From: Candidatus Gottesmanbacteria bacterium RIFCSPHIGHO2_01_FULL_40_15
Lineage (GTDB): Bacteria; Patescibacteriota; Microgenomatia; 2-02-FULL-39-11
DNA: 64,000 nucleotides
Direction of reading: 5' to 3'
NCBI GenBank assembly: GCA_001779115.1
Contig: MFJF01000012.1
Location: 33,142-97,141, forward strand
This document shows, piece after piece, positions 1-25,594 of the stretch (its first letter is position 1; each line of letters begins with the position of its first letter). The position numbers and the translations under genes were made by a program. The notes beneath the pieces are model-generated. The model saw nothing but the letters and a program-made list of their open reading frames with translations, was not told the DNA's origin and did not search any database.

Positions 1-1157
1 CTTTAACCGCCAATGAAGGAATACTTTACGGAATTAACGAACATGACGGAAGTTTGGTTATTTTTGACAGATTTTCACTGGAGAACGCCAACAGTGTTAT
101 ATTCGGTAAAAGCGGATCGGGAAAGAGCTTTATGGTAAAGCTGGAAGTGATGAGAACGCTTATGTTTGGAGCTGAAGTATTTGTAATAGATCCGGAGGGA
201 GAATACAAGGATTTAACCCGAGCGCTAGGAGGAGATTTGGTTGATTTTTCGTTCAACTCCCCGGTTAAAATTAATCCGTTTGATTTATCGGGAATATATG
301 AAGAGGGAGAAAATGAGCTCGGGCTTAAAATCCTGTCTCTTCACGGACTGATGAGGGTGGTCATGGGAGAAATGAGTCCGGGAGAGGACGCTTTGCTTGA
401 CCGCGCCCTGGTTCTTACCTATAAGCAGAAAGGAATTACGCCAGACCCATCAACCCAAAAAAGAGAACCGCCTTTGATTGAAGACCTTTATAAAGTACTG
501 TTAGGAATGGAAGAAGAAAATGCCAAAAGACTGGCCGAGCGGCTGGAAAAGTTTGTCAAAGGATCCCTCTCAGGAATTTTTAACCAGAAATCAAACCTAA
601 ACCTGAAAAACCCGCTGACGGTTTTTAATATCAAAGAACTGGAGGCGGAATTGCGGCCTTTAGCCATTTTCATTATTCTTGATTTTATCTGGACGAAAAT
701 AAAAAGAAGCATTAAAAAACGTTTGATGATTGTTGATGAGGCCTGGTATTTAATGAAACATCCGGATTCGGCGACATTTTTATACGGTATCGCCAAAAGG
801 GCAAGAAAATATTACCTGGGGGTGACAACCATCACGCAGGATGTTGAAGATTTCATTTCAACAGACCACGGCAAGGCAATTATTACCAATTCATCCCTGC
901 AGATTCTGCTGAAGCAATCAACAGCGGCTATTGATAAACTGGCTGAAGTGTTTTATCTTTCTTCGGGCGAAAAACATTTTCTTTTATCAGCAGGGGTAGG
1001 CGAAGGACTTTTCTTTGCCGGAGCCTCACACGCAGCTGTCCAGTTTATTGCTTCTCCACCGGAATATCAGCTGGCAACAAGCAAGCCTCAGGAAACTGCC
1101 GAAAAATCAGCATATCCTGAGGAAACACCGGTTCCGAACAGAACACCCAACATATAA
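1..1157 (+). CDS. VirB4/TrbE-like type IV secretion ATPase, C-terminal part (5' end runs off the window edge)
   Basis: The frame is open from nt 3 to the stop at 1157. A Walker A motif (GKSGSGKSF) is followed by VIDPEGEY and IVDEAWYLM, then a GVTTITQDVEDF block typical of the VirB4/TraC/CagE C-terminal domain. Confidence 0.6.
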   Translation, partial: LTANEGILYGINEHDGSLVIFDRFSLENANSVIFGKSGSGKSFMVKLEVMRTLMFGAEVFVIDPEGEYKDLTRALGGDLVDFSFNSPVKINPFDLSGIYEEGENELGLKILSLHGLMRVVMGEMSPGEDALLDRALVLTYKQKGITPDPSTQKREPPLIEDLYKVLLGMEEENAKRLAERLEKFVKGSLSGIFNQKSNLNLKNPLTVFNIKELEAELRPLAIFIILDFIWTKIKRSIKKRLMIVDEAWYLMKHPDSATFLYGIAKRARKYYLGVTTITQDVEDFISTDHGKAIITNSSLQILLKQSTAAIDKLAEVFYLSSGEKHFLLSAGVGEGLFFAGASHAAVQFIASPPEYQLATSKPQETAEKSAYPEETPVPNRTPNI

Positions 1158-5699: not shown

Positions 5700-6032
5700 G
5701 TGCTTGCTAAACATTTCCGGATTAAACAATCCGATTTTTTCCGAAACAAATCACCGGTTAAAAAAAAATTTTCCGACCGATTTTCTTTATTGATTAAAAA
5801 AAAAGATGACAAAAAAAACGGATTTGTCATTAATGTTCCGGTGAAGCTTGACAAAAGGTCAGTATACAGAAACAGAACCAGAAGAATGATCGAACTGATT
5901 ATCAGGGAGCTGCCATTTGATTCCGGAAAAAACGCGATGATATTAATCAGAGCCAGAAAAATATTGAATAAAAACGAATTGGCGAAGGCGGCAGGAGATC
6001 TTAAAAAATTACTTCAAAATGAATTTTATTGA
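5700..6032 (+). CDS. rnpA: ribonuclease P protein component
   Basis: 110 aa, basic, with the RnpA-like RNRTRR motif ([15 protein letters not shown]). Canonical position after rpmH. GTG start. Confidence 0.75.
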
Positions 6033-6249
6033 CCGGGTATTATTAAAAACTATCAGAATTTATCAAAAAGTTAACTTAATTGTTCCTAAAGGAATATTTT
6101 TGAGGGGTTGCCGGTTTGATCCGACATGTTCGGAATATACTTATCAGGCAGTGAAGAGATATGGTACAATCAAAGGATTAAATTCCGGTTTAAAAAGAGT
6201 ATTCCGCTGCCATCCGTTTTCCACAGGCGGATATGATCCGGTGAAGTAA
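6019..6249 (+). CDS. yidD: membrane protein insertion efficiency factor YidD
   Basis: 76 aa. The conserved RFDPTCSEY...[12 protein letters not shown] motif matches the YidD family. It sits between rnpA and yidC. Confidence 0.8.
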
Positions 6250-6253
6250 GTTT

Positions 6254-7096
6254 ATGTTTAATCCGAACAACTGGTTCCATGCGTTTTTTATTATCCCCAT
6301 ATTAAACCTTTTAATGGTTTTTTATGTGGTTTTGACAAATCTTTCCATTCCCTTTGCTTTGGGATTTTCACTTATATTATTGACAGTCGCCATAAGACTG
6401 ATTTTGCATCCGTTAACAGCAAACCAATTGAAAAGTACCCAAAAACTAGGGAAATTAAAACCGGAGCTTGATAGAATCAGTAAACTATATAAGGATGATA
6501 AAACCAGGCTTCACCAGGAACAGTTAAAACTTTATCAACAGGCAGGTATTAATCCAGCGGCAGGTTGTTTGCCTTTAATTCTTCAGATGCCGATTCTTAT
6601 CGCCTTATACAATCTTTTTTTTCAACTTTTAAGTAACGGTAACGCGGTAAACGTCGTAAACGATATAAATAAGGCAGTATATTTTCCTTTTTTAAAAATT
6701 AAGTCGTTAGACTTGGCTTTTTTCGGGCTGAATTTGGCAAGTAAACCGTCCGACTGGCAGTCGAAGGGATTCTTTTTACTTCTCATTCCCGTAATTACCG
6801 GACTTTTGCAGTATTGGCAAACAAAAATGATGTCTCCGGTTCAAAACCCAAATCCGAAAATAAAAGAAATAAAAAAAGATGAGTCTGATCAAGGTAAGAA
6901 AGAAGGCGGGGAAGATATGGCGCAGGCAATGCAAAAACAGATGGGTGTAATGATGCCCCTGATGATCGGATTTTTCGCTTATTCTTTTCCTTTAGGACTG
7001 TCACTCTATTGGAACACATTTACGGCTTTTGGTATAATCCAACAATATAAAATTACTCAGACGGAAAACAAGAATGAAGAAAAAAGCAAAAAGTAA
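6254..7096 (+). CDS. yidC: membrane protein insertase YidC/Oxa1 family
   Basis: 280 aa and polytopic. LHPLTANQLKSTQKL...QQAGINPAAGCLPLILQMPILIALY matches the YidC conserved core. Gene order is conserved. Confidence 0.8.
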   Translation: MFNPNNWFHAFFIIPILNLLMVFYVVLTNLSIPFALGFSLILLTVAIRLILHPLTANQLKSTQKLGKLKPELDRISKLYKDDKTRLHQEQLKLYQQAGINPAAGCLPLILQMPILIALYNLFFQLLSNGNAVNVVNDINKAVYFPFLKIKSLDLAFFGLNLASKPSDWQSKGFFLLLIPVITGLLQYWQTKMMSPVQNPNPKIKEIKKDESDQGKKEGGEDMAQAMQKQMGVMMPLMIGFFAYSFPLGLSLYWNTFTAFGIIQQYKITQTENKNEEKSKK

Positions 7097-7565
7097 AAAT
7101 ATTAAAGAAGAGATTGAAGTCGTCGTCAATGAGCTTTTGGAAAAACTGCAGGTTGAAGGGAAAGTAAATGTAACGGAGGAGACAGGCGATACTGAGGGTG
7201 ATACAGCTTCCAGTTACCGGATAACAATTGAATCCGAAGAGAGCGGTCTTCTCATCGGCCACCATGGAGAAACCATCAACAGTCTCCAGCTTATTCTGGG
7301 TGTCATTCTTTATAAAAAATCTGGTAAATGGATGAGGGTGATTTTGGATGTCGGGGATTACCGGAAGATGCGGGAAGAAACGATTAAAGAAATGGTGAAC
7401 AGAATTGTTACCGAAGTTGAAGACAGCGGCAAACCGGTGGAATTGCCTTATTTATCACCGCTTGAGCGAAGAATAGTCCATATGATGCTTACGGATCATA
7501 AAAACGTCAGATCGGAATCAAGCGGAGAAGGCAAGGATAGACGGGTGACGATAAAACCCCGTTAA
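7074..7565 (+). CDS. Jag/KhpB-like RNA-binding protein (KH + R3H domains)
   Basis: 163 aa. R3H-like LSPLERRIVHMML is present. Its start overlaps the yidC end, the classic yidC-jag arrangement. Confidence 0.7.
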   Translation: MKKKAKSKNIKEEIEVVVNELLEKLQVEGKVNVTEETGDTEGDTASSYRITIESEESGLLIGHHGETINSLQLILGVILYKKSGKWMRVILDVGDYRKMREETIKEMVNRIVTEVEDSGKPVELPYLSPLERRIVHMMLTDHKNVRSESSGEGKDRRVTIKPR

Positions 7566-7580
7566 TTCCCCCATTTTTTA

Positions 7581-8888
7581 ATGAAGGGGATCACAAAAAT
7601 TGAAAATCTTCAAAAAAACCTTTTTTTTCTTCTTATTTTTCTGATTCCGGTACAGTTGGGCAGGCATTTTTTTTTCAATTTTTCACAAATTGCCGGAATT
7701 CCAAGCGACTATCTGACCCCGACTATTTATCTGACTGACATCATTATTTTCTTAATGGCATTTCTTGAGGCAATAATGATATTTTTCTTTCAGTCGAAGA
7801 AACGCCGTTTCGAGAACACTAAGGGTTCATATCTTTTTTTCGGGTATTTAATTTTTTCAACTGTTTTTATCGCCGTAAATAAATGGGCGAGTTTTTATAA
7901 ACTTATTAAAATCGCCGAGTTTTTTATTTTATTTAAAATTATACGTAAATTGCGGCCGGAGACGAGGAAGGTATTATTTTTTTATTGCCTGTCGGTTTTA
8001 TATACATCATATCTGGCCATTAAACAGTTTTTAGCGGGTGAGTCTTTAGGTGGATGGTGGTGGTATCTGGGGGAGAGAACTTTTCATGCATCATCACCGG
8101 GAATTGCCTTAAGTAAAATTTCGGGAAGATTGTTTTTAAGGCCATATGCCACATTCGCCCATCCTAATGTACTTGGCGGATTTTTAGCAGCGGGATTGCC
8201 CCTTGTATTATATTACCTTCTTAATGAAGGAAAAGACAAAAGGGTCATAAAGCTTTTATCGCTATCCGGATTTATTTGGGGAGCGATTGTCCTATTTCTG
8301 ACTTACAGCCGGGCGGCCTGGTTTATGTTTTTTACAGGAATAGCCATTATTTTTGTTGTTAATTTTAACAAACGAATTACTAAATATTTTTCCAATAAAA
8401 AACTTTATTTACCGATACTTTTGTTTTTATTCCTATTATCAATATATTTTCCGATAAAATTAAGCGAGTATAAAAACTCATCGGAGGGGAGTTTATTTGA
8501 AAGAAGCGAGCTGATTTACGCTTCACTTCTGACCTTTGTTGAAAAACCGATTTTCGGGACGGGGCTGAATAATTCCTTTTTGGAGCAGTATAAAATTTTA
8601 CCAAAGAGTTACGGATTATTCATATTACAACCCGTGCATAACAGCTATATGCTGCTACTTACCGAGCTAGGTTTAACCGGTTTTGCTTTTATACTTTTAA
8701 TACTCCGGAAAATATTGGCTTTGGTTAACCGCAATAATATCATAAGTTTTTTACCGTTGATTCTTATTCTTATGCTGGGATTTTTTGACCATTATCCGGT
8801 AAGCCTTCAGCAGGGTTTGTTGATTCTGACTGTTTTTGCCGGAATGGCCTTTTCCCAATCCAATAAGCTAAATGAAGAAACATCCTGA
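7581..8888 (+). CDS. O-antigen ligase / Wzy_C family polytopic membrane protein
   Basis: 435 aa with about 10 or more TM helices. YSRAAWF and HNSYMLLLTELGLTG motifs are typical of O-antigen ligase-like proteins. Confidence 0.55.
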   Translation: MKGITKIENLQKNLFFLLIFLIPVQLGRHFFFNFSQIAGIPSDYLTPTIYLTDIIIFLMAFLEAIMIFFFQSKKRRFENTKGSYLFFGYLIFSTVFIAVNKWASFYKLIKIAEFFILFKIIRKLRPETRKVLFFYCLSVLYTSYLAIKQFLAGESLGGWWWYLGERTFHASSPGIALSKISGRLFLRPYATFAHPNVLGGFLAAGLPLVLYYLLNEGKDKRVIKLLSLSGFIWGAIVLFLTYSRAAWFMFFTGIAIIFVVNFNKRITKYFSNKKLYLPILLFLFLLSIYFPIKLSEYKNSSEGSLFERSELIYASLLTFVEKPIFGTGLNNSFLEQYKILPKSYGLFILQPVHNSYMLLLTELGLTGFAFILLILRKILALVNRNNIISFLPLILILMLGFFDHYPVSLQQGLLILTVFAGMAFSQSNKLNEETS

Positions 8889-9191
8889 ACTTCTTAGGAT
8901 AAAAAGCTGTCAAAACAAATTTTTCCATTGAAGAATATTTCATGGTAATCTAATAACAGCTCCCAAAATGAGAAGAATTAAAAAATTATTATTATTTTTA
9001 TTCATATTACCGGTTACCGTATTTTTTGATTTTATCCTTTTTTCATTAACCCGGAATTGTCCTTCATGCGGCAGTTTTTCACAGTGGCTGGCCAGCGAAG
9101 CTGCTTTGTCATTTCCCCTGGTTGTCTCGCTTTCCGACTTTTTAAACACAATACTTACAGATTTACAAATAGTCAGGAATAAAAAATAAGG

Positions 9192-9752
9192 ATGAATATC
9201 GCCATTTTAGGCGGGAGATTCGACCCGCCGCATATTTGGCATTTCTGGACCGCCCAGCAGGTACTTGAAAATGTCAAAGATTTAGACCAAGTATGGTATA
9301 TGCCTGATTACCAGAATGCCTTTAAGCCGATTGAAGCAGGAGCAGGGGAAAGGCTTGAGATGTTGCAGTTTATGGAGACCGGGAAAATTAAGACTTCAAA
9401 TATGGCAATTTCCGAACCCGGAGTGACTTATACGGTAAAAACAGTGAATGAGCTGGTTAAAGACAAAAAGAACAGGTTTTTCTGGATTGTCGGGTCTGAT
9501 ATATTATCTGAATTTCATAAATGGCGCGATTACCAAAAATTGAGCCGGCTGATTACTTTTTTGGTTTTTCCCAGAAAGGATTTTCCGATAAAACACATAC
9601 CGGCAGGGTTTAGACGGATTGAGGGGCATTTAATGCTATCAAATGTATCTTCTTTTATAGTCCGGGATAGAATCAAACGCGGTTTAACAGTCAGCGGACT
9701 GGTTTTTCCGGCTGTTGAGGAATATATCAGGAAGAAAAACCTTTATAGATAA
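9192..9752 (+). CDS. nadD: nicotinate-nucleotide adenylyltransferase
   Basis: 186 aa. The N-terminal GGRFDPPHIWH motif corresponds to the (H/T)xGH nucleotidyltransferase signature of NadD. Confidence 0.7.
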   Translation: MNIAILGGRFDPPHIWHFWTAQQVLENVKDLDQVWYMPDYQNAFKPIEAGAGERLEMLQFMETGKIKTSNMAISEPGVTYTVKTVNELVKDKKNRFFWIVGSDILSEFHKWRDYQKLSRLITFLVFPRKDFPIKHIPAGFRRIEGHLMLSNVSSFIVRDRIKRGLTVSGLVFPAVEEYIRKKNLYR

Positions 9753-9810
9753 AAACTCAAATATCAGATGACTGATGCCCCGGCAAGCTGACAGGCAAAT
9801 CTAAAAATCC

Positions 9811-10605
9811 ATGAATCAGAATATTAATCTGACATTAAATCCTAAGAAAGAATCTGAAAAAATAGTTAAGTTTATCAGAGAAAGCGTTAACAAAGCCGGT
9901 TTTTCCAAAGCGGTGATCGGGTTATCCGGCGGAATTGATTCGGCCACCTCACTGGTTTTAGCGGTTAAAGCACTTGGAAGTCAAAACGTAATCGGAGCAA
10001 TTCTTCCATACGGTGACTGGCAGAAAGAAGCGCTTGACGATATTTTTGAGTTAACCGGCAATGTGAAATTACCCGAGAGAAATTTAATTAAAACAGATAT
10101 AAAAGGGGCAGTTGATGAGATTGTCGATCTTGATTCTTCAATAAATGAATTGAGAAAAGGGAATATTATAGTGAGGGTAAGAATGATAATTTTGTATGAC
10201 TTATCAAAAAAATACGGGGCATTAGTAATGGGCACTGAAAACAAGACAGAGTTTTTGCTTGGGTATTTTACCAGGTTCGGAGATGAAGCTTCCGATTTGG
10301 AACCGATCAGAGGGCTTTATAAAACTCAAGTACGGCGGTTGGCCGAATATTTAAAAGTGCCAACAAAAATAATCCGGAAAGCGCCTTCCGCCGGAATGTG
10401 GCCGGGACAAACGGATGAAGGGGAAATGGGATTCACTTATGAGAAAGCCGACAGCATATTATATTTATTTACCGATAAAAAATTAAGCAAAAATGAAATA
10501 ATATCCCGGGGATTTGACAGTGCAGTTGTTGAAAAAGTTTTAAAGAGATTGGAAGATAATGAATTCAAACATCAAATACCCTACATTATTGAGATTGAAA
10601 AATAG
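9811..10605 (+). CDS. nadE: NH3-dependent NAD+ synthetase
   Basis: 264 aa. It has the PP-loop SGGIDSA and conserved MGTENKTEFLLGYFTRFGD. Confidence 0.8.
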   Translation: MNQNINLTLNPKKESEKIVKFIRESVNKAGFSKAVIGLSGGIDSATSLVLAVKALGSQNVIGAILPYGDWQKEALDDIFELTGNVKLPERNLIKTDIKGAVDEIVDLDSSINELRKGNIIVRVRMIILYDLSKKYGALVMGTENKTEFLLGYFTRFGDEASDLEPIRGLYKTQVRRLAEYLKVPTKIIRKAPSAGMWPGQTDEGEMGFTYEKADSILYLFTDKKLSKNEIISRGFDSAVVEKVLKRLEDNEFKHQIPYIIEIEK

Positions 10606-10629
10606 AAAAACATCTATTAATATTGATAT

Positions 10630-12018
10630 ATGGCAGTACAGCTGAATTACATTGCACCTCCCGGCTGGAAGCCGGAAAATCCCGACCAGAATTTTGTCAT
10701 TGTCCAATATAAGATTGAACTTAATGATTTTGTTGACAAGAGCAAGTTTTTGGATGCGGCAGCATCGGTGGCGGCTGAATCATCGACCGGTACATGGACA
10801 AAAGTCGATGAAGGAGCGGATTCGGGAATTTTAAAGGCTGATTTGTATAAAGCGCTGGTTTTTGACATCGATGAGCCGAATTTCATCTTTAAAGTGGCGT
10901 ATAAAAAAGATCTGTTTGAGGAGGATAACATGTCCGGATTTCTGGCCGGTCCGGCGGGAAACATCGGCGGGATGAAGATGGTATCCGGTCTTCGGATGTT
11001 TGATATCCGCTTTCCTGAAGCAATGGTGAAAGCATTCCCAGGTCCGCGATATGGAATTGAGGGCGTAAGGGATCTTTTGGAACAGGATGAAAAATACAGG
11101 AAGATGCCGATTATGGGAACGGTTCCCAAGCCCAAAGTAGGCAGAAACTCACATGAGCAGGCAGAACTGGCCAGGAGGCTTTGGACTGCAGGGGACGGCA
11201 GTTATGACTTTATCAAAGATGATGAAAATTTAACCAGCCTTTCATTTAATAAATTTGAGGACAGGGCAAGACTGATACATGAAGTTCAGAGGGAACTTGA
11301 GGAAAAAGGGGGTAAAAAGAAATTATATTTGTGCAACTTAACCCATTCCAGTCTGGATATCATGATAGAGAGAGCAAATTTGATTAAGGAAACAGGCGGA
11401 AGATGCATGATGATTGACGTGGTAACGACCGGTCCGGCGGCTGTTCATACGATGAGACTGAAGAATCCGGAGCTGGTCATTCATGCACACCGGGCGATGC
11501 ATGCTTTTATCACCAGAGAGTCGGGTGAGGGCATTACCGGGAAGGGGAAACTTCAGGGTTTTTCCGTTTCCATGCTGACACTTTCTAAAATATTCAGACT
11601 TTTGGGTGTTGATTCGATTCACACAGGATCTCCCAAGGCGAAAATGGAGGATTACGGGGAGAGCGAGGAGATAGCCAAAGTATTGACACAGGATGAAGTT
11701 TCCCCAAATCCCAAGTTCCACAGTTTGGGACAGCGATGGTTCGGGACAAAAAGAGTGTGGCCGACAGCTTCGGGCGGGCTTCATCCAGGTGTAATAGATA
11801 CAGTGATCGGAAAGCTTGGGTCAGATTGTTACATACAGATGGGCGGGGGAGTTTTAGGGCATCCCCAGGGCATTCAAAGAGGTGTTGAAGCAGCCATTGA
11901 AGCGAGAGAAGCAGTCTATGAGGGTAAAAGCGTGAAGGAGTATGTTTCGGAAAATCCTGATTCGGCACTTGCTGTTGCGGTCGGTCTTTGGGGAACAGAA
12001 CCGAAGATTGTGTATTAG
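10630..12018 (+). CDS. ribulose-1,5-bisphosphate carboxylase/oxygenase large subunit, form II/III-like
   Basis: 462 aa. Motifs present: GTVPKPKVG (the KPK loop), DFIKDDENL (site of the carbamylated Lys), IHAHRAMHAF and GGGVLGHP. There is no small-subunit gene nearby. Confidence 0.85.
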   Translation: MAVQLNYIAPPGWKPENPDQNFVIVQYKIELNDFVDKSKFLDAAASVAAESSTGTWTKVDEGADSGILKADLYKALVFDIDEPNFIFKVAYKKDLFEEDNMSGFLAGPAGNIGGMKMVSGLRMFDIRFPEAMVKAFPGPRYGIEGVRDLLEQDEKYRKMPIMGTVPKPKVGRNSHEQAELARRLWTAGDGSYDFIKDDENLTSLSFNKFEDRARLIHEVQRELEEKGGKKKLYLCNLTHSSLDIMIERANLIKETGGRCMMIDVVTTGPAAVHTMRLKNPELVIHAHRAMHAFITRESGEGITGKGKLQGFSVSMLTLSKIFRLLGVDSIHTGSPKAKMEDYGESEEIAKVLTQDEVSPNPKFHSLGQRWFGTKRVWPTASGGLHPGVIDTVIGKLGSDCYIQMGGGVLGHPQGIQRGVEAAIEAREAVYEGKSVKEYVSENPDSALAVAVGLWGTEPKIVY

Positions 12019-13264: not shown

Positions 13265-14065
13265 ATGGAGAATAACGAAAAACTGGTAAAATCGGCACGA
13301 AATTTTCTTCTGGACCTTCTTCCATCGGCCGGACAAATTGTCAGGAGATATCTGCATGCGGAAGAGTTACCCAGCAAGAAAAAAGGCGTGCATGATTTTG
13401 TTACGGCAGCAGATCTGGCTGTTGATAAATTTTTACAGGAACATTTGAATTATAATTTTTCAAAAATACCCATACTTTCGGAAGAAACTTTCGAGGACAA
13501 CTTGGAGGATTATAAAAATATGAATCTGCTTTTTATTATAGATCCGCTTGACGGAACATCCAATTTTGCCCGGGGCGATGATAACTTCTGTATCAGTGTA
13601 GCCTTAGCAGAAAGAGGCGAACCGCTTTTGGGGGTGATATTCCAGCCAATTTCCAGCCGGCTTTTTTGGACTACTTACCGGGATCAAAAAGCATTTTGGA
13701 ACGGCCGGAGTATAAGAGTTTCCGATATATCAGAACTAAATAAGGCTGTTGTCTGTACTGACTGGTCACATATCATGGAAACAAGAGAGGAGACAACGCA
13801 ATTTTTAAGAAAAATATTCGGAAAAGTAAGACAGATAAAAATTTTGGGTAGCGCGGCATCAGATATAACTTTATTGGCAAGGGGAGGAGTTGATATATAC
13901 CACCATGTTAGACTTTTTCCCTGGGATGTGGCGGCAGCGGGACTTATAGCCCAAAAAGCAGGAGCTTTAGTTACTGAAATTGACGGAAGCAAGTGGAACG
14001 TGTTTTCGGAAAGCATTCTGGCGGCAAACCCGGAGTTGCATAAGAAAACATTGAAGATCTTATGA
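13265..14065 (+). CDS. inositol monophosphatase / FBPase family protein
   Basis: 266 aa. The IIDPLDGTSNF and WDVAAAGLI motifs match the IMPase metal-binding signatures. Confidence 0.7.
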   Translation: MENNEKLVKSARNFLLDLLPSAGQIVRRYLHAEELPSKKKGVHDFVTAADLAVDKFLQEHLNYNFSKIPILSEETFEDNLEDYKNMNLLFIIDPLDGTSNFARGDDNFCISVALAERGEPLLGVIFQPISSRLFWTTYRDQKAFWNGRSIRVSDISELNKAVVCTDWSHIMETREETTQFLRKIFGKVRQIKILGSAASDITLLARGGVDIYHHVRLFPWDVAAAGLIAQKAGALVTEIDGSKWNVFSESILAANPELHKKTLKIL

Positions 14066-15106
14066 TTTTATATACTTTCTTAATTCTGAAGCAGCTTGTT
14101 CCGGAGTAATATCCCTTTGGGGTTGAGCCAGCATTTCATATCCGACCATAAATTTTTTTACCGTTGCAGAACGAAGCAAGGGCGGATAATAATGAGCATG
14201 AAGCTGCCAATACCCATTATTTTTAACATTAAAAGGGGCAAAATGCCAACCCATAGAGTAGGGCATGGATATATTAAACAAGCGATCATAGGAAAGTAAA
14301 AGATTTTTTGTTATTTCCGCTAACTCTCTTTTTTCCTCAGCAGATATTAAAGTAAATTGGCTCCGATTAGTTTTCGGAAGAAGAAGAGTTTCGTAAGGCC
14401 AAATTGCCCAGAACGGAACAACAACTATCCAAGAATAATTTTCAGTCACAACCCGCTCTTTTTTATCCAGTTCCTTTTTTACATAGTCCACTAGAAGGAC
14501 TGAATCATTTTTTTCAAAATATTTTTTCTGCTGAATATCTTCTTTTGAAACTTCATTGGGAATAAAATTACTTGCCCAGATTTGACAATGCGGATGAGGA
14601 TTGGAACAACCCATAAGCTCTCCTTTATTTTCGAAGATCTGTACCCAATTATATTTATGTTTAAATTCCTCTATTTGACTGATCCAGGTCAATATCACAT
14701 CCTGAATTTGATCATCAGTCATTTCGGAGAGGGTCAGATCATGACGGGGTGAAAAGCAGACTACCCGGCATTCTCCTTTTATCGCGGCAGCTTGCAATAT
14801 GCCTGAATTATTAATTATTGATTCTTTTTGTCCGGTATCGACAATCGGAGGAAAATCATTTCGGAAGACAAAAGTGTTTTTATAGCGGGGATTTTTTTCT
14901 CTATTGGCTCTTATATTTCCGGGGCACATATAACAAGAAGGATCGTATATCAGTTTTTTTTCTTTTTGAATTTTTTCATACTTGCCCTGCCAGGGTCGTT
15001 TTGTCCTTTGGGGAGAGACAAGAACCCACTCGTTAATCAAAGGATTATAGCGCCGGTGGGGTTGGGATAGAAACATAAGGTAATTGTATACTATTACGGA
15101 TTTCAA
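14060..15106 (-). CDS. galT: galactose-1-phosphate uridylyltransferase
   Basis: 348 aa. CYMCPGN zinc site and the HPHCQIW active-site motif of the HIT-like GalT family. Confidence 0.8.
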   Translation of the reverse strand: MKSVIVYNYLMFLSQPHRRYNPLINEWVLVSPQRTKRPWQGKYEKIQKEKKLIYDPSCYMCPGNIRANREKNPRYKNTFVFRNDFPPIVDTGQKESIINNSGILQAAAIKGECRVVCFSPRHDLTLSEMTDDQIQDVILTWISQIEEFKHKYNWVQIFENKGELMGCSNPHPHCQIWASNFIPNEVSKEDIQQKKYFEKNDSVLLVDYVKKELDKKERVVTENYSWIVVVPFWAIWPYETLLLPKTNRSQFTLISAEEKRELAEITKNLLLSYDRLFNISMPYSMGWHFAPFNVKNNGYWQLHAHYYPPLLRSATVKKFMVGYEMLAQPQRDITPEQAASELRKYIKS

Positions 15107-18178: not shown

Positions 18179-19432
18179 ATGTCAATGAAGGGAAAAAAGT
18201 TTAGCCAGCATACTTCTAATAGTTTTTTTGAAACTAAAATGGATTTCCTAATTCCAATTATTCCCAATAATAAATTAGAAATATTTTCAAAAATATTCAG
18301 AAATGAAATAATCGCTGCTTTACATAACCAACCTACATCGTTACCAGTTATTTTGAACCCGATACATAAAATGATATCAAGACCCGGTTTAGGTGTTGCA
18401 GTTTCAGTCGGTGGTACGAACGGTTATGCATCAGCTTTCAGAATCACACAAAAAGGGATAATTACATTTATAAACCGAAAAAAATTCTCCATTCCGAAAA
18501 TAATTGATAAAAACAAGTTATTTCATCTTATTTCTGAAAACATTCTGTCAGTTATCGGTAAAGAAAAAAATTTCACCATTGGCATCGGTTTAGCATATCC
18601 TCTGAAGCCGCATTTATATCAGGGTTTTATTGACGGTGAACTGCTTTATATGACTAAAGGAAGAAACATTAAAAATCTGGCAGGTAAAAGAGTCGGACAG
18701 GAATTCCATAAATTTATACTCAAAGAGTACAACTTGGATAATAAGGTAGCTGTAGCTAATGATGTAATTTGCCTTTTATTAGGAGGTGAAAATATTGAAA
18801 TTGCCGGTATAGTCGGTACAGGATTAAATTTTGCATATTGGGAAAAGCGGGCAAATATTGCTCCTTTGAAACTTAATCATCTTCCCGGATTCGGTCAGAG
18901 GGAGGTGGCGGTTAATATCGAATCCCAAAATTTTAATAAACTGCCTGAAACTAAATTAAGAAGAACAGTTGATAAGTATAGCAGTGATCCCGGAAAGTCT
19001 TTGGCTGAGAAAGAAGCTGCCGGGGCATATTTATACCAGATTTTTAATGCGGGAAAGGATAAATTATTGGGTACTGACTTTCCGAAACTGACTTCAACTG
19101 ACCAGTTGAACGACATTATAAGAGGAGCCTTTAGGAATGAAAATCCAAATTTTAAAATCCAAATTCCAAAAGCTAGAGCATTTGCGGAAAGAATACTTCA
19201 CCGGAGTGCGCAGATTACGGCGATAGAACTTTGCGGAATCATGATGAAACTGGGCAAAACTAAAGGTGCAGTGCCTGTTGTGATGGAGGGCGGAATTTTT
19301 TGGAAAGCGCATAATTATCATGCCCTGGTTAACCTTTATGTAAACATGATTCTTCCCGAGGTAATTCCATCATTTGCCCGACTGTTCGGATCTTCAAGAA
19401 GAGGTATTGCCATTTTGGCAAGAGGAATGTGA
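18179..19432 (+). CDS. hexokinase-family sugar kinase
   Basis: 417 aa with the following matches to hexokinase signatures:
- VSVGGTNGYASAF (hexokinase LDLGGTNFRV)
- GIGLAYPLK (LGFTFSFP)
- VAVANDVICLL (VAxVNDTVGTL)
- GIVGTGLNFAYWE (GxIVGTGxNACYME)
- The C-terminal VVMEGGIFWKAHNYH (VDGSLYKxHP). Confidence 0.55.
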   Translation: MSMKGKKFSQHTSNSFFETKMDFLIPIIPNNKLEIFSKIFRNEIIAALHNQPTSLPVILNPIHKMISRPGLGVAVSVGGTNGYASAFRITQKGIITFINRKKFSIPKIIDKNKLFHLISENILSVIGKEKNFTIGIGLAYPLKPHLYQGFIDGELLYMTKGRNIKNLAGKRVGQEFHKFILKEYNLDNKVAVANDVICLLLGGENIEIAGIVGTGLNFAYWEKRANIAPLKLNHLPGFGQREVAVNIESQNFNKLPETKLRRTVDKYSSDPGKSLAEKEAAGAYLYQIFNAGKDKLLGTDFPKLTSTDQLNDIIRGAFRNENPNFKIQIPKARAFAERILHRSAQITAIELCGIMMKLGKTKGAVPVVMEGGIFWKAHNYHALVNLYVNMILPEVIPSFARLFGSSRRGIAILARGM

Positions 19433-19492
19433 TAGGCCAACCAGCGGATTGGGTTGACCATACAACCTTTTTCCCCGTAATATAGATATAGC

Positions 19493-22400
19493 ATGATAAA
19501 TCCAGAAGCAGGTCCTCCAAGAAGGAATCTTATGGAAGTACTTAAAGAAATCCTGAAACAATTATTGGGGAAAAAACAGGAGGAAAAATTAAGAAAGGAA
19601 GAAGCAGAAAGAAAATCAAGAGAAAAAAATGAAACCGCCAGAAAAGAAAAAAACGAACAAATCCGGCAGCAAAGAGAGAAAGAGAAAAAGAAAAAAGAAG
19701 AAAGAGAAGCGGAGAAAGCTTATCATGAGAGAAGATCGGCCCAGAAAAGAGTTGAAGAGGAGGATTTGGAGAAAGCAAGAGAAGCTATCCATAAAAAAAG
19801 CACAGAAAAGATAAAAGAACAGATTAAGAACGTAATTGAACAACCGGAACCGGAAAAAGGGAAGATCACATCAGGTTATGAAACAGCTTATTATCTTTTT
19901 CCGGAAAGTTTACGCAATGATCCACAAAAGCTAAACCAACTTTACAGATTAATTGAGGAAAATCCAAGAGCCGCTTCGGTTCTGGAAGCGTTAACCGAGA
20001 AAGACGCTGTAATTCACAGCGATCCGGGAAGACTTCTTGAAGCCGGAAAACTTCTTTATATCAGTACTCCTGATGAGTTAAAACCTGTTGCTGAGGAAAT
20101 CATCTCGGTTATAAACCGGAGGATTAAAGAACTGATTCCCATAAAAGCCGTCGAATTACAACAGAGAGGGAGGCAACAAATTAATGAAGAAACAGCCCGG
20201 CAAGCAACATTAAATGACGTTTTAAGACAGGTAGATCCATATGTAACTCCGGAACAAAGGGAACTTTTAGCAAACTGGAGGACATATGAGCAAGCGGTTG
20301 ATCAAATCTTATCAAGTCCCGGGTTTGAAGGCGAAGTCAGAAAGGTTGATATACCGGCAATACCGGGAACATTGCCGGAAACGGCGATAAAGAGCATCGA
20401 TAAAGTGTGGGAGAAGGTGGAACAGGTACAAAAGGGAAAAAGGTCACTAACAACTGAAGAACTGGACAAAATACGAAGAGAATTATATGAAGCTGAATCA
20501 GATGCGTTTCCCAAAGATGTAATACCCGGATCTGAGGAGTATAACAGAGAAGTACAAGCAATATACAGACATTCCGAGGAGAGGCTTAATCAGCTGGCCG
20601 AGATGTTCCGGGAAAGATTGAGAAGCGAGACCCCACCGGTAAAAACGGGAATTACCGATCCGGAGGAATTCCTGTTCAGAATGTCAGAGCGGTCGGGAAT
20701 TTTGGGAGATTTGTTATTGAGAAATCCGGAAATGCTTAAACTTTTTACCGGAACCGGTAAAGATGCGTACTGGTTCAGAAACCAGATTTTTTTAAGAATT
20801 CACGGATCGGTCTTAACCCAAAAAAGGGAATCTTCCGGGGAAAATTTCAGCCTATATGAAAGGTCCGATTTTACCTCATTTATAAGTTTATTAAGAGGAG
20901 GATTATCGGGCATTATTGTCCCTGATACAGGAAAAAGCGTCGGACAGACCTGGTCTGACTGGTATACATCGCTGTCTACAACAATAAGATTATCAAGGGA
21001 TATAGATTTTTGGGTGTCGCAGCCGGCAGCTTCAATTGACAACTTCAATAAATCCCTGGCTTTATTCCAAAACGAGTATTCGGTCCAGGCAATGACCATG
21101 CCGGCAGTCGAGCAAGCCTACCGGGCGTATGAGACTGCTTTGATGACAATCAGGGATACCAATGACGGCTATATTCCTCCGGCACTTATTGAGTATGATG
21201 CGGTTCACAATACCATCTATTGGGACCAATGGGCTCAGGATTTGCTTTCCAATAAAATGATTCCCCAGGGAGTTGTCAGGGACAGCGCCCGGGATTTTGA
21301 AAGAATGGGAGGGTTGCCATTAGTAAATCCCGACGGGATAACTACCCAAATCGGAGACGTGATTACCGAGGATGATTTGAAAAAAGACCCGCAGAAGCTG
21401 GAAATCCAGATGTACATGACACTGGCTAAGGGATTCGGAATGGCCAGTATGAGATTTTTGGAAATTGTAGCCAATTCCAAAGTTCCGATGGTTGGAATGC
21501 CCGGATTCCACAGCCCGGTTTATGAGGGCGCGGCTATTGCATTGAACTATTGGAATCTGTTTATGAAGAAATGGGGTCAGGGAGCATATAAATATTTCCA
21601 TATGATGAATACGGTATTGCCTTATGAAAAGCGATTACCGGTTGATTCCAAAGGAGCGGAGAAAGCTTATCTGGCTCATCTGAACGGTACATTTAAAGAG
21701 AAATATGGTGAGGAAGCAAAAAGACTTTTAGATGTATTGAATTTTGACCGTGCAAGCGGAGCATTTACGGAATTTACTCCCTGGAGGTATTTTGATGACA
21801 CAATCGGCTGGACGGATAGGCAAAAACAGTTAATGGGGGGTCCGACCAGGCATATTTTTGCCGAAAGATTTGCTAGTGAAAAAGTAAAGGAATATCTGGT
21901 TGAGGAAAGATATAAAGAGATATTCAGGAAGAGGAAAAGGGAAGCAGGTCAGCCGGATTCAGGTCCGGAATTTGACACTTTATGGTTGAATGAAGGGATA
22001 TCTATATATGAAAGTGCAATAGATAAAGACTGGAGAGAATTAAATCACCATCATAAGAAGCGTGTTGATGAGTTAATTTATAATTATACCAAAGCATTCC
22101 GATCCCGGGTGTGGGTTGAAACAGCTATGCGCAGTCCGGTGACAATGGCACATATTATTGACGTGAAAATGCCCATACCGGGATACGGAAAAGAAAAAAA
22201 ATCAAGAAAACTGCATAGTTATATTATTGAACAGGTGTTAGGAATAACTCCGGAGGATATCGAATACGGTTCGGTTGAAGGAGATGAAGGACAATATAAA
22301 ATATACGCGGCGAAATATGCTTCACCAACTGAAGCTCAAAGGATAAAGTTAAAGGAGATATTCGACCTTGAGGGGGATTTAATGTCGGTCAGGGAAATTG

Positions 22401-23347
22401 CCATGTCGGAAAACAGAGAGTTAAGAGTTAGCGATTTTGAGATAATTAAGGATACAGTCAGACAGGAACATGCCAGAAAGTATTGGAATATTGTTAAAAG
22501 ATATGTGATCGGGGACGAAAATCCCGACAGTAACAGAATTTATCAAAATTTAGGCATAGAGCTTCATTTTGACAATTATGACATTGACTGGCATAAGATT
22601 GAGCGGATTGATGAGCAAATGCGAAATTATAAGAATATTGTTGTTTTGCCGGCAACGGCCGGAACAGAAATGTCAGTGTTACCGCAAGCTTTTGAGGAGG
22701 AGTGGCTTAACAAAGAATTTGAATGGGTGGAATCAACCGATGATACGGCTTTCCGGGAGATGGATCTTCTTAATTTGGGATCAAGACAATGGGTAAGAAG
22801 GGGCGGAGATGTTGCCTCGCACTTTCAAGGATCGCAGTTAACAGCTGAATATTTTGACGTGGAATTAACACCCAATCCTGATCCGAGTAAGCTAGCTGAA
22901 GCACTTTTGAAGATAAGAAAAGCGTACCAGGGGGATGATATCGGGGTAGGATACCGGCTGGCGGGAGCTTTGGGGCAGCTGACCAGCAAGTTATACGAAT
23001 TTGATTATAAAAGACTGGGGTCTGCCGCCCAAATGGAGGTTTGGAATACAAGAAGAGGGGTAGCAGCCTGGAATGCCAACGGCAGGCGGGCTTTTTGGGA
23101 TGCAGTTGAGCATATGGATGTAATCCCTCCCCATGCAGAATTTGAATTTCCGAATCCATTTTTGCAAGGGCCACCAATAAGAGACGTCAAATACATGAAT
23201 ATTCATGAGTTGAGACACCTGAATCATGCCGATAATGCCGATGTCTGGGTGGAAATACTTACTTTGGGAATTTTGCTGGCAACAGCAATTACCGTTTGGA
23301 GGGCGTTCACGGCCAAAAGCGAAGAGGAAGAAGCAGGGGGACATTAA
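19493..23347 (+). CDS. large hypothetical protein (1284 aa) with a K/E-rich coiled-coil N-terminus and a C-terminal membrane anchor
   Basis: An uninterrupted 3855-nt ORF. The first ~110 aa are a low-complexity Lys/Glu/Arg run. One hydrophobic helix (ILTLGILLATAITVW) sits 20 aa from the C-terminus. No catalytic motif recognised. Confidence 0.5.
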   Translation: MINPEAGPPRRNLMEVLKEILKQLLGKKQEEKLRKEEAERKSREKNETARKEKNEQIRQQREKEKKKKEEREAEKAYHERRSAQKRVEEEDLEKAREAIHKKSTEKIKEQIKNVIEQPEPEKGKITSGYETAYYLFPESLRNDPQKLNQLYRLIEENPRAASVLEALTEKDAVIHSDPGRLLEAGKLLYISTPDELKPVAEEIISVINRRIKELIPIKAVELQQRGRQQINEETARQATLNDVLRQVDPYVTPEQRELLANWRTYEQAVDQILSSPGFEGEVRKVDIPAIPGTLPETAIKSIDKVWEKVEQVQKGKRSLTTEELDKIRRELYEAESDAFPKDVIPGSEEYNREVQAIYRHSEERLNQLAEMFRERLRSETPPVKTGITDPEEFLFRMSERSGILGDLLLRNPEMLKLFTGTGKDAYWFRNQIFLRIHGSVLTQKRESSGENFSLYERSDFTSFISLLRGGLSGIIVPDTGKSVGQTWSDWYTSLSTTIRLSRDIDFWVSQPAASIDNFNKSLALFQNEYSVQAMTMPAVEQAYRAYETALMTIRDTNDGYIPPALIEYDAVHNTIYWDQWAQDLLSNKMIPQGVVRDSARDFERMGGLPLVNPDGITTQIGDVITEDDLKKDPQKLEIQMYMTLAKGFGMASMRFLEIVANSKVPMVGMPGFHSPVYEGAAIALNYWNLFMKKWGQGAYKYFHMMNTVLPYEKRLPVDSKGAEKAYLAHLNGTFKEKYGEEAKRLLDVLNFDRASGAFTEFTPWRYFDDTIGWTDRQKQLMGGPTRHIFAERFASEKVKEYLVEERYKEIFRKRKREAGQPDSGPEFDTLWLNEGISIYESAIDKDWRELNHHHKKRVDELIYNYTKAFRSRVWVETAMRSPVTMAHIIDVKMPIPGYGKEKKSRKLHSYIIEQVLGITPEDIEYGSVEGDEGQYKIYAAKYASPTEAQRIKLKEIFDLEGDLMSVREIAMSENRELRVSDFEIIKDTVRQEHARKYWNIVKRYVIGDENPDSNRIYQNLGIELHFDNYDIDWHKIERIDEQMRNYKNIVVLPATAGTEMSVLPQAFEEEWLNKEFEWVESTDDTAFREMDLLNLGSRQWVRRGGDVASHFQGSQLTAEYFDVELTPNPDPSKLAEALLKIRKAYQGDDIGVGYRLAGALGQLTSKLYEFDYKRLGSAAQMEVWNTRRGVAAWNANGRRAFWDAVEHMDVIPPHAEFEFPNPFLQGPPIRDVKYMNIHELRHLNHADNADVWVEILTLGILLATAITVWRAFTAKSEEEEAGGH

Positions 23348-24852
23348 TTTCCCCTATGGGTAGGTTTCTGGCCGCCGCCGAATATGCCTTTGAGAGGACC
23401 GGGAAGGTTCTGCATGGTTGACTGCAAATAATAGAACTGGCTGGCAGCACCCATTGTAGTTTGGGTAGCTCCGGTCAGGGGAGCAAAAGCCGTTCCGGCA
23501 GTAATCGGCAGGAGCGGTTTGGGATGGAAAGCTTTTTTAACCGTAGCAATTAGCGTGGGAGCGAGAAAGAGAACTCCCAGTCCCAGAAAGGCGGTAAAAG
23601 ATCCTTTACCGGGCATGGAGATAAAGGGCGGTGAGAAAAGGCTCCCTGTATCAGTATTGATTTGGGCCAGATATTGGGCAAACATCAGTATGGCCACAGT
23701 TGTCGGGAAAACGACCAGGTTGGCAATAACATTCATAATCCACTGGGAAAAAGCCGAGCGGCCGGGGACAGCTTCAAGAAGGAGCTGGAGAGGACCAATT
23801 ACCAGGGCAATAAGGAGTTGAATATAGGAATTTAAAAGCAGAAGAAAAATCCTGATAAAAGTAAAAAGCAGTCCCAGGAAAAGAATCAGAATAAATAATG
23901 CTCCGATGGCACCGCCGCCGATTAAAACCGCCCACCAGCCGGCCTGCAATATCAGCGCGATTATTCCAACAGCAGTTCCGGATCCCAGATAAGCGGTGAA
24001 ATTCCTTTTGAAAAAATCATCCAGCGTTGAGAAACCGCCGGAAAAAACGGTTTTAAAAAGATCGCCAAAATCAGCCGTTAGAAAATATGTCTGAAATTCA
24101 GCAACCCTTGATGATTGTTCAAAACCATTGGCCAAAAGACTGACTATTATGGCCGTAGACAAATACATGAGATCAACCAGAAAACCGATAATCGGGTATG
24201 AAAGAGTGATAAGAATCAGAGTAATAACAATCTTGGGAAGAGCAGCCTGGACGGAAATAACTGTTTTGGGATCGATTTTCATACGGAAGATGACCATAAA
24301 TCCTATGGCAATCATGATGACAATCATGACAGAGTAGGAGATATTGCGGGTAACTTTCCAGAGAGGCAGAAGAGGGGAAAGTCCGGCAAAACCGATACCC
24401 TGGGCATAGGCCGGTTTAACAAGAATACCTGAATTTTCCAGCATATCATACGCGTAATAGATACCCGAGGCAGGCGGATTAGCGTAGATCGTTCCGATTG
24501 CCCGAGCGAGCGCGCCCATCATAGTATATTTTTCATTACAATATTTTTGATCGATACAACCAATCTGACTGGCAAGAGCATAGGGCATAACTCCGGCAAA
24601 TCTGATCATGACATCACGATCAAAAACCTGGGTTGCTCCCTCTTGTTGCGCTGTTATCCGGGCCTGTTCTCCCTGTTGATTTAATGTATCAACACTGGTG
24701 TCGAGCAGAATATCCTGGGGATTGGCAGCGGAAGTGAAATGTAATTTTATAAATAAGGATAAGACCAGGAAGACAATAGAAAAGAATAAAATTCTCCGGG
24801 GCAGTTTAGGCATGTCTAATTTCATTATTTCCGCTTGTGAGGGAAGTGTCAA
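23344..24852 (-). CDS. polytopic membrane protein, VirB6/TrbL-like candidate
   Basis: 502 aa. Signal/TM start, then a ~150 aa extracytoplasmic segment, then at least 7 TM helices rich in G/A/L. Last gene of the pilin-like operon. Confidence 0.35.
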   Translation of the reverse strand: MTLPSQAEIMKLDMPKLPRRILFFSIVFLVLSLFIKLHFTSAANPQDILLDTSVDTLNQQGEQARITAQQEGATQVFDRDVMIRFAGVMPYALASQIGCIDQKYCNEKYTMMGALARAIGTIYANPPASGIYYAYDMLENSGILVKPAYAQGIGFAGLSPLLPLWKVTRNISYSVMIVIMIAIGFMVIFRMKIDPKTVISVQAALPKIVITLILITLSYPIIGFLVDLMYLSTAIIVSLLANGFEQSSRVAEFQTYFLTADFGDLFKTVFSGGFSTLDDFFKRNFTAYLGSGTAVGIIALILQAGWWAVLIGGGAIGALFILILFLGLLFTFIRIFLLLLNSYIQLLIALVIGPLQLLLEAVPGRSAFSQWIMNVIANLVVFPTTVAILMFAQYLAQINTDTGSLFSPPFISMPGKGSFTAFLGLGVLFLAPTLIATVKKAFHPKPLLPITAGTAFAPLTGATQTTMGAASQFYYLQSTMQNLPGPLKGIFGGGQKPTHRGN

Positions 24853-24868
24853 GTTTTGATAGGGAATT

Positions 24869-25192
24869 TCAGGTTCCGGGGACGGTAAAGATGGTAATTT
24901 TTACTCCGGTGTAAAATTCAATAATCCTGAATATCAAAAAAGCAATTGCCATAAGAGCAATTCCCATGACGGCATAAGTCATAGTCTGTTTGGCTGAGGC
25001 TGCAGCTTTTGGGTCGCCGGCGGCCGTTAACAATTTAAATCCGCCGACAATGAGCATGATAAACAGTGCCAAAAGTCCAAGACTTATGGCAATATTGAGA
25101 ATTTGTTTGTAGACAGCTTCGAGGCATTTGAGAGTCGGCACGTCAACACCGCCGATTGTTTTTATACAAGGAACTCCGGCCCAAGGTTTCAT
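24869..25192 (-). CDS. VirB2/TrbC-like T4SS pilin-family small membrane protein (paralog B)
   Basis: 107 aa with two hydrophobic helices flanking a GGF...AAGDPKAAASAKQ core. Clearly paralogous to the upstream 128-aa gene. Confidence 0.5.
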   Translation of the reverse strand: MKPWAGVPCIKTIGGVDVPTLKCLEAVYKQILNIAISLGLLALFIMLIVGGFKLLTAAGDPKAAASAKQTMTYAVMGIALMAIAFLIFRIIEFYTGVKITIFTVPGT

Positions 25193-25207: not shown

Positions 25208-25594
25208 TCAGACTCCGCTCGGAATTACTAAGTTAAAGATATTTTGAATTCCGAAGAACCGGCCGACCAGAATCATGATCGCCCAGGCGGCAAAGACAAC
25301 AAAAAGACCGATAATGGCAGCCTGAATTCTTTTCTGGGCAGCTTCAACACCGGCTTTATCTCCGCCTGATGTTATCCATTGGAATCCGCCAAGCAATAAG
25401 TAAATAAAGGCAGCAAGAGTGGCGACAACCAGAATTGCGCCTATCGCTCCGCTTATCAACCTTCCCAAATCAGTTACCCTAAGATTTGGCGGTGCCGGAA
25501 TATTTAACGGAACTCCCTGAGCGTAAACGGCTGTTGACAAAAGATGAAAGGAAAATGGAAGCGACCCGATGAACAATTTCTTAAATGCGGTCAT
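25208..25594 (-). CDS. VirB2/TrbC-like T4SS pilin-family small membrane protein (paralog A, signal peptide)
   Basis: 128 aa. Signal peptide (…STAVYAQG), then a helix, GGFQWITSGGDKAGVEAAQKRIQAAIIG, then a second helix. This architecture is typical of TrbC/VirB2 pilins. Confidence 0.5.
   Translation of the reverse strand: MTAFKKLFIGSLPFSFHLLSTAVYAQGVPLNIPAPPNLRVTDLGRLISGAIGAILVVATLAAFIYLLLGGFQWITSGGDKAGVEAAQKRIQAAIIGLFVVFAAWAIMILVGRFFGIQNIFNLVIPSGV

Follow-up and report, generated by a model that had tools for sequence, protein, structure and literature searches.

A family of giant, predicted C-tail-anchored proteins linked to a polytopic membrane protein and VirB2-like pilin genes in Microgenomates

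Type IV secretion system (T4SS)-like apparatuses with arrays of VirB2-like pilins are widespread in Patescibacteria (Quinonero-Coronel et al. 2025, PMC12102498) and are essential for epibiotic growth of one genetically tractable Patescibacterium (Wang et al. 2023, PMC10633639), as described in the available parts of these two reports. In Microgenomatia, according to the same portion of PMC12102498, recognisable VirB6 is scarce, VirB8 is nearly absent and pilin arrays are abundant, and the scarcity of the first two leaves room for unrecognised components. We analyzed a 64,000-nucleotide (nt) stretch of the genome of Candidatus Gottesmanbacteria bacterium RIFCSPHIGHO2_01_FULL_40_15 (contig MFJF01000012.1, hereafter the window), in which an open reading frame (ORF) of 1284 amino acids (aa) with an ATG start was identified at 19493..23347 on the plus strand from the ORF list and its translation. 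With a 626-aa FtsH as runner-up this is the largest ORF in the window, as an original prediction made from the letters of the DNA had stated. The gene has full-length homologues, and its product, hereafter the giant, is an exact match to NCBI hypothetical protein A3D05_02205 from a Candidatus Gottesmanbacteria metagenome-assembled genome (MAG). Downstream and convergent lies the gene for a 502-aa polytopic membrane protein (23344..24852, minus strand), hereafter the partner. We read the giant as an accessory or scaffold subunit of a Microgenomates T4SS-like pilus module, cytoplasmic, tail-anchored and docked to the partner; this reading, which draws on gene context, we hold at about an even chance.

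TssL/SciP of the type VI secretion system (T6SS) and DotU of the type IVB system carry a cytoplasmic alpha-helical domain on a single C-terminal transmembrane helix, and TssL and DotU have about 200-260 residues. The giant would share this architecture, and like them it has no signal peptide and is encoded within or adjacent to a secretion-machine gene set; it differs in its predicted ~1250 cytoplasmic residues, in having no sequence or Foldseek similarity to either, and in an acidic/poly-Gly/His tail that is specific to the giant family. In bacteria, C-tail proteins such as TssL depend on YidC for insertion, and the giant is expected to take the same route (PMC3426401, PMC6794478). A second described system is the extended VirB6, in which a polytopic core is joined to large hydrophilic domains (PMC12857230). 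The giant and the partner are jointly alike, with a polytopic core next to VirB2-like pilins and a very large hydrophilic domain, although the likeness is one of context only, since the partner has no VirB6, TrbL or PrgH match, and, unlike in extended VirB6, the bulk of hydrophilic sequence belongs to a second polypeptide that has a transmembrane helix of its own and is encoded on the opposite strand. With respect to the Patescibacteria T4SS (Wang et al. 2023, PMC10633639; Quinonero-Coronel et al. 2025, PMC12102498), the window shares with the available descriptions both the PF18895 arrays and a layout in which a monoderm-type VirB4 lies near dnaA/dnaN with no relaxase nearby (the latter in PMC12102498). 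The available text of PMC10633639, a transposon-sequencing (Tn-seq) study of Southlakia, and that of PMC12102498 contain no mention of a giant tail-anchored protein or of the partner family.

When the giant was searched without its lysine- and glutamate-rich (K/E) head, 17 full-length homologues of 38-53% identity were retrieved, and HMMER, run exhaustively over 1.84 billion representatives, yielded 86 representative clusters at E<=1e-3, 52 of these at E<=1e-30. Genome-collection scans based on alignments of closer members recovered close relatives only. Family members were mostly 1100-1350 aa long, most aligned from about residue 430 to the C-terminus, and all those with a name belonged to Gottesmanbacteria, Microgenomates or the 'Patescibacteria group'. 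A full-length word-index search with the intact giant found no match except the giant itself, because the low-complexity K/E head filled the candidate list. The orphan status assigned by the original prediction was therefore only apparent, and the lesson for method is that such a head can swamp word-based homology searches. The family to which the giant belongs is real and conserved and had not been described before. As a rule, homologues are colinear with the giant over its full length, and the fusion artefact that had been listed for checking is therefore excluded. Only one MAG carried a split gene. In this MAG (locus L008, Gottesmanbacteria RBG_16_37_8), the closest species-level relative with 67% identity to the giant, the break falls near residue 1187 (8001-11564 and 11619-11900, plus strand) and reflects a frameshift, a pseudogene or faulty assembly. 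As the closest relative is only 67% identical, synonymous sites are saturated for dN/dS. Two giant paralogues on separate contigs were observed in some genomes, namely L010 and L014 (MFJN01, Gottesmanbacteria RIFCSPHIGHO2_02_FULL_40_13) and P0009 and P0107 (FJY90_04635 and FJY90_02620). A MAG labelled 'uncultured Gammaproteobacteria' (L013, CAYIFB010000024.1) carried a typical Gottesmanbacteria-type giant-partner-pilin locus and is probably mis-binned or mislabelled.

Nineteen distinct loci had a contig that continued past the giant gene, and in every one of them a convergent partner homologue was found just downstream. Fifteen of these loci extended far enough for pilins to be assessed; 2-6 PF18895-type pilin genes were present beyond the partner in 14, with the partner directly downstream of them on the same strand, the exception being locus L017. 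The stop codons of giant and partner overlapped or lay at most 19 nt apart in most loci, with a gap of ~1 kb in two. In the window the overlap expected by the original prediction is real, as the TAA of the giant (23345-23347) and that of the minus-strand partner ORF (23344-23346) have a TTAA palindrome in common. The linkage persisted at 22-32% identity and in a remote branch, whose partners were clearly homologous (hhalign probability 100%, E = 1e-58 and 1e-45). Two VirB2-like T4SS pilins are encoded in the window on the minus strand, one of 107 aa with two transmembrane helices (24869..25192; PF18895 E = 1.2e-8, 35.3 bits against a cut-off of 26.6) and one of 128 aa (25208..25594; E = 3.9e-7, 30.5 bits against the same cut-off). 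In loci L005 and L006, VirB4-like, VirD4-like, PrgI-like and TraC-like genes and an M23 peptidase gene lay just upstream of nadD-nadE-giant. The association with a filament module was thus stronger than first proposed, holding in relatives down to ~22% identity, and the accompanying idea of a variable accessory gene gave way to a fixed single position with a fixed partner in every locus. In the remote-branch locus L016 a 1354-aa ORF (5749-9813, minus strand) with no Pfam or NCBIfam match was observed between the partner and the pilin array, and may be another unrecognised component.

The partner was present in 19/19 loci and is obligate in this sense. By transmembrane prediction it has ~9 helices in addition to an N-terminal signal or transmembrane segment, and thus exceeds the five helices by which a polytopic protein encoded with VirB2-type pilins was recognised. 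It had no Pfam match even at E<=5, no NCBIfam match and no match to VirB6, TrbL or PrgH profiles, and a 6-sequence profile gave no match to PDB sequences. Kinship to the PrgI-like polytopic protein of the main T4SS cluster was also considered and rejected, the two being unrelated on comparison. Given the missing VirB6/TrbL match and the lack of relation to the PrgI-like protein, the label 'VirB6-like' in the original prediction is a contextual guess; the protein is polytopic by prediction, its assignment to that family is unconfirmed, and the partner is best described as a candidate VirB6-type platform. Within its N-terminal extracytoplasmic region (residues ~40-165) C99 was nearly invariant, and an invariant motif, PPA...AYAQGxGFxGL..LLP.WK, was located immediately before the second transmembrane helix. 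Pilins or the giant tail might dock on this region.

The pair of giant and partner, found in 19/19 loci, is the most strictly conserved unit, and this would also be expected if the two formed a self-contained membrane system, for example for transport, envelope maintenance or signalling, with the giant as a cytoplasmic enzymatic or regulatory subunit and the pilins as neighbours only. The absence of pilins beside the pair in L017, the 1354-aa gene that intervenes in L016, the distance of 18 kb to virB4 in the window, conserved acidic and basic core residues compatible with catalysis or ligand binding, and a partner without a VirB6/TrbL model match are all consistent with such a system. However, the pilin arrays lie on the strand of the partner with short gaps in 14/15 loci, so that pilins and partner look like one operon, and the nadD-nadE-giant-partner-pilin region adjoins VirB4/VirD4/PrgI genes in L005 and L006. 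We consider a two-gene system that only neighbours the pilins unlikely.

In the giant itself, which we prefer to read as a scaffold subunit of the pilus module, a variable N-terminal helical region of aa 126-425 (19868..20767, plus strand; from identity among relatives and AlphaFold2, AF2) precedes a family-wide conserved core of aa 426-1250 (20768..23242, plus strand; from HMMER, conservation and AF2), which is predicted to be mostly alpha-helical with small beta elements. Mean identity in the variable region was 23-43% among close relatives, and it was unaligned in distant ones; the core blocks 426-800 and 1081-1245 reached a mean identity of 55%. Across 68 diverse members, 68 positions reached a conservation of at least 85%, mostly within aa 426-1250, examples being D503, D505, E547, D578, K646, R654, E657, E678, D768 and R880 as well as R975, D981, D1084, R1098, R1102 and D1106. 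In matched genome pairs the giant was the most diverged gene among its neighbours, mainly through its N-terminal third, where identity among close relatives was 23-29%, and the description of it as fast-evolving was in this respect correct. AF2 modelling of aa 111-1284 from a 68-sequence alignment gave a mean predicted local distance difference test (pLDDT) of 90.3 and a predicted template modelling score (pTM) of 0.79, with a mostly helical fold, a few small beta elements, a long terminal helix, and a disordered linker at aa 283-292 between helices of the variable region. A separate AF2 model of aa 423-800 gave a pLDDT of 90.9 and a pTM of 0.87.

No match to the full model was found by Foldseek in the PDB (best probability 0.30, TM-score <= 0.11), nor to the best-conserved 378-residue core domain, aa 423-800 (best E = 0.76), and no giant match was found in BFVD. 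The giant, 15 close relatives and distant relatives had no match in Pfam, NCBIfam, PHROGs or PADLOC, and sub-threshold matches of the family to these libraries were single, scattered and inconsistent. In a comparison of the giant profile with PDB sequences, matches were confined to the charged head, which aligned with other charged helices at E > 0.6. Homology to a housekeeping family, which the original prediction had named as a point to check, was found in none of Pfam, NCBIfam, PHROGs, PADLOC, PDB and BFVD. Judged by a confident predicted model, the family is structurally unmatched in the libraries searched. A P-loop of the form [AG]xxxxGK[ST] was absent from the giant, with no consistent one in relatives, and Pfam and NCBIfam gave no match, so that the giant does not qualify as a T4SS ATPase of the VirB4, VirD4 or VirB11 type. 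An HD-type metal site at 'SRDIDFW' was likewise rejected, as the His is not conserved in the giant and no fold match supports it.

The single hydrophobic segment of the giant is V1251-W1269 (Kyte-Doolittle hydropathy, KD, 1.95), followed by the 15 residues RAFTAKSEEEEAGGH. On KD, conservation and AF2 the C-terminal transmembrane helix was assigned to aa 1251-1274 (23243..23314, plus strand), AF2 predicting helix over aa 1248-1278, and on family tail composition a short acidic tail, KSEEEEAGGH, was assigned to aa 1275-1284 (23315..23344, plus strand). A C-terminal 19-mer at KD>=1.6 was present in 69 of 78 full-length members. A C-terminal helix at KD>=1.4 was seen in 71 members, which had neither another 19-mer at KD>=1.6 nor, at the N-terminus, a signal-like 15-mer; their post-helix stretch measured 4-24 residues (median 15) and was net negative in 64 (mean -2.1), and the 15 residues before the helix had a mean net charge of +0.25. 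At least three D/E were found in 68 of these tails, at least three Gly in 40 and His in 48, with SEEEE-(Gly)n-His-His as the family consensus. The best-conserved segment of the protein was aa 1246-1284, with mean identities of 66% in close relatives and 48% across the 68 diverse members, of which at least 85% kept each of E1254, G1259 and A1263. A boundary Glu (Glu1254) with a GxxxA motif (G1259xxxA1263) suggests sequence-specific helix packing rather than a passive anchor. The giant has the features of the C-tail-anchored class: one transmembrane helix falls in roughly the final 50 residues, and neither a signal peptide nor any other hydrophobic segment is present. The charge bias of flank and tail favours an N-in/C-out orientation. 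With no signal peptide or further hydrophobic segment and only a short, acidic tail, the giant is predicted to keep its body of ~1250 residues in the cytoplasm, and thus to be C-tail-anchored and not surface-exposed. The single tail-anchor helix of the original prediction was recovered in this way; its 'surface protein', which agrees neither with the N-termini nor with the short acidic tails of the 71 members, was not.

Type IVB systems, for which the E-block is defined, recognise it through DotM. SEEEE is conserved in the giant tail, where it is placed after the transmembrane helix, and this Glu-rich block in the last ~20 residues resembles the E-block motif defined for Legionella Dot/Icm type IVB substrates (PMC3096851). 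The giant might on these grounds be a T4SS substrate itself, with helix and Glu-rich tail as a secretion signal and/or host-membrane insertion element, delivered to or displayed towards a host cell. The fast-evolving N-terminal third of a gene that is the most diverged among its neighbours and the two paralogues in some genomes point in the same direction, as does the view, in the available part of PMC10633639, that Patescibacteria T4SS export proteins and not DNA. According to the available part of PMC12102498, however, the present system is related to the monoderm MPF-FATA conjugation machinery. Effectors usually vary in presence and position, whereas the position and the partner of the giant are fixed family-wide; its helix, the most conserved segment and one with a packing motif, fits a stable intramembrane partnership; and translocation of a confidently folded helical body of 1250 residues would be demanding. 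We regard delivery as a substrate as improbable, and the effector or host-interaction role first proposed for the giant is disfavoured for what appears as the fixed, single-position partner of a membrane protein.

That the giant is a C-terminally anchored surface adhesin or envelope protein with its large domain outside the cell is highly improbable: while large cell-surface proteins are common in genomes of the candidate phyla radiation (CPR), and sortase- or exosortase-type surface proteins can carry a hydrophobic anchor at the C-terminus, a signal peptide or N-terminal hydrophobic segment was seen in 0/71 members, no LPXTG-type motif precedes the helix, the tail is acidic and not basic, and the predicted fold is almost all alpha-helical and globular with no repeat or beta-rich adhesin domains.

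If the giant is a tail-anchored subunit of the pilus module, as we favour, its helical body of ~1250 residues would, from the predicted topology, fold in the cytoplasm and its C-terminal helix would be inserted post-translationally, probably by YidC. A YidC insertase, the likely insertion route for such an anchor, is encoded in the window (6254..7096, plus strand; PF02096 60KD_IMP, E = 9.7e-48). Insertion would expose on the outer face a tail of ~10-15 residues that runs from acidic residues through Gly to His, and the helix, with its conserved boundary Glu and GxxxA, may dock against transmembrane helices of the partner. Through the partner the giant would work with the adjacent VirB2-like pilins of a T4SS-like apparatus. 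More speculatively, the body might serve as a platform or adaptor beneath the pilin-assembly site, and might link that site to VirB4/VirD4 ATPases or gate it. A bolder proposal, which we put forward tentatively and with some doubt, is that giant and partner form an unrecognised inner-membrane core of the Microgenomates T4SS-like pilus which functionally replaces the VirB6/VirB8-type platform not found in this class, with a new ~1250-residue cytoplasmic fold, a sequence-specific helix and an acidic/Gly/His tail in contact with the pilus base; in its boldest variant the giant would be delivered through the apparatus and insert into the host membrane via its helix.

Several points weigh against a scaffold role in the pilus module. 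The giant is encoded on the strand opposite to partner and pilins and for this reason does not share a transcript with them. Neither its sequence nor its fold matches a known T4SS subunit, it has no P-loop, and the partner is not demonstrably a VirB6 by profile or PDB-sequence searches. The remote locus L017 carries the giant-partner pair without adjacent pilins, and the pair could therefore be self-standing and often merely next to pilins. The topology of the giant derives from hydropathy and charge rules only, and its core, in which Asp, Glu, Arg and Lys are conserved at many positions, could have an enzymatic role instead of a scaffolding one. Should the scaffold role hold, the giant and its partner, always attached to a pilin array save in L017, could be missing T4SS parts in Microgenomatia, and the conserved Glu/GxxxA helix with its acidic/Gly/His tail offers a defined handle for interaction, topology and cryo-electron tomography (cryo-ET) work.

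The N-terminal head of the giant, aa 26-125 (19568..19867, plus strand), was delimited by composition and charge pairing and lies outside the structure models. The charged K/E/R head of the original prediction was readily seen, with 61 of its 100 residues being K/R/E/D. It had been taken for a coiled coil, a description at odds with a hydrophobic content of 11% and with a heptad a/d occupancy of at most 0.5 in any 28-residue window (mean 0.24), which leaves no heptad pattern. Opposite-charge i->i+4 pairs were dense, and while the sequence of the head was poorly conserved (29% mean identity), its charge was kept in relatives. The head thus resembles a single charged helix or linker of the ER/K type, sharing its composition and i->i+4 charge pairing with ER/K single alpha-helix (SAH) domains; this likeness rests on composition, the head sequence not being conserved.

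At the 5' end of the giant gene the intergenic gap is 60 nt (19433-19492). It contains a weak promoter-like site, TTGACC-18-TAATAT (19454-19483), that ends 9 nt 5' of the ATG, and no obvious Shine-Dalgarno sequence was seen within 19433-19492; the transcript may be leaderless or nearly so. At the 3' end a GC-rich hairpin, GGGGA-8 nt-TCCCC (23336-23353), is centred on the overlapping stops of giant and partner. A bidirectional terminator at this place, which could have explained the poly-Gly codons, was considered and rejected, as the hairpin was not conserved in 11 other loci (z -2 to +2).

At the left edge of the window lies the C-terminal part of a VirB4-like T4SS ATPase (54..1157, plus strand; PF19044 P-loop_TraG E = 1.9e-29, AAA_10, DUF87), the start of which is beyond the edge. 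This gene is 18 kb upstream of the giant and is followed by a 504-aa ORF without a family (1218-2732, plus strand), dnaN (2737-3846, minus strand) and, beside it, dnaA (4043-5383, minus strand). T4SS genes thus adjoin the replication origin in the window, as published for Patescibacteria. Between these origin-proximal genes and the giant a sugar-metabolism set was observed, comprising a 462-aa ORF (10630-12018, plus strand) which by alignment only has 78-81% identity to RuBisCO large-subunit genes annotated in L001 and L003, GalT (14060-15106, minus strand) and a hexokinase-family protein gene (18179-19432, plus strand). The hexokinase-family gene was a conserved upstream neighbour of the giant within Gottesmanbacteria only.

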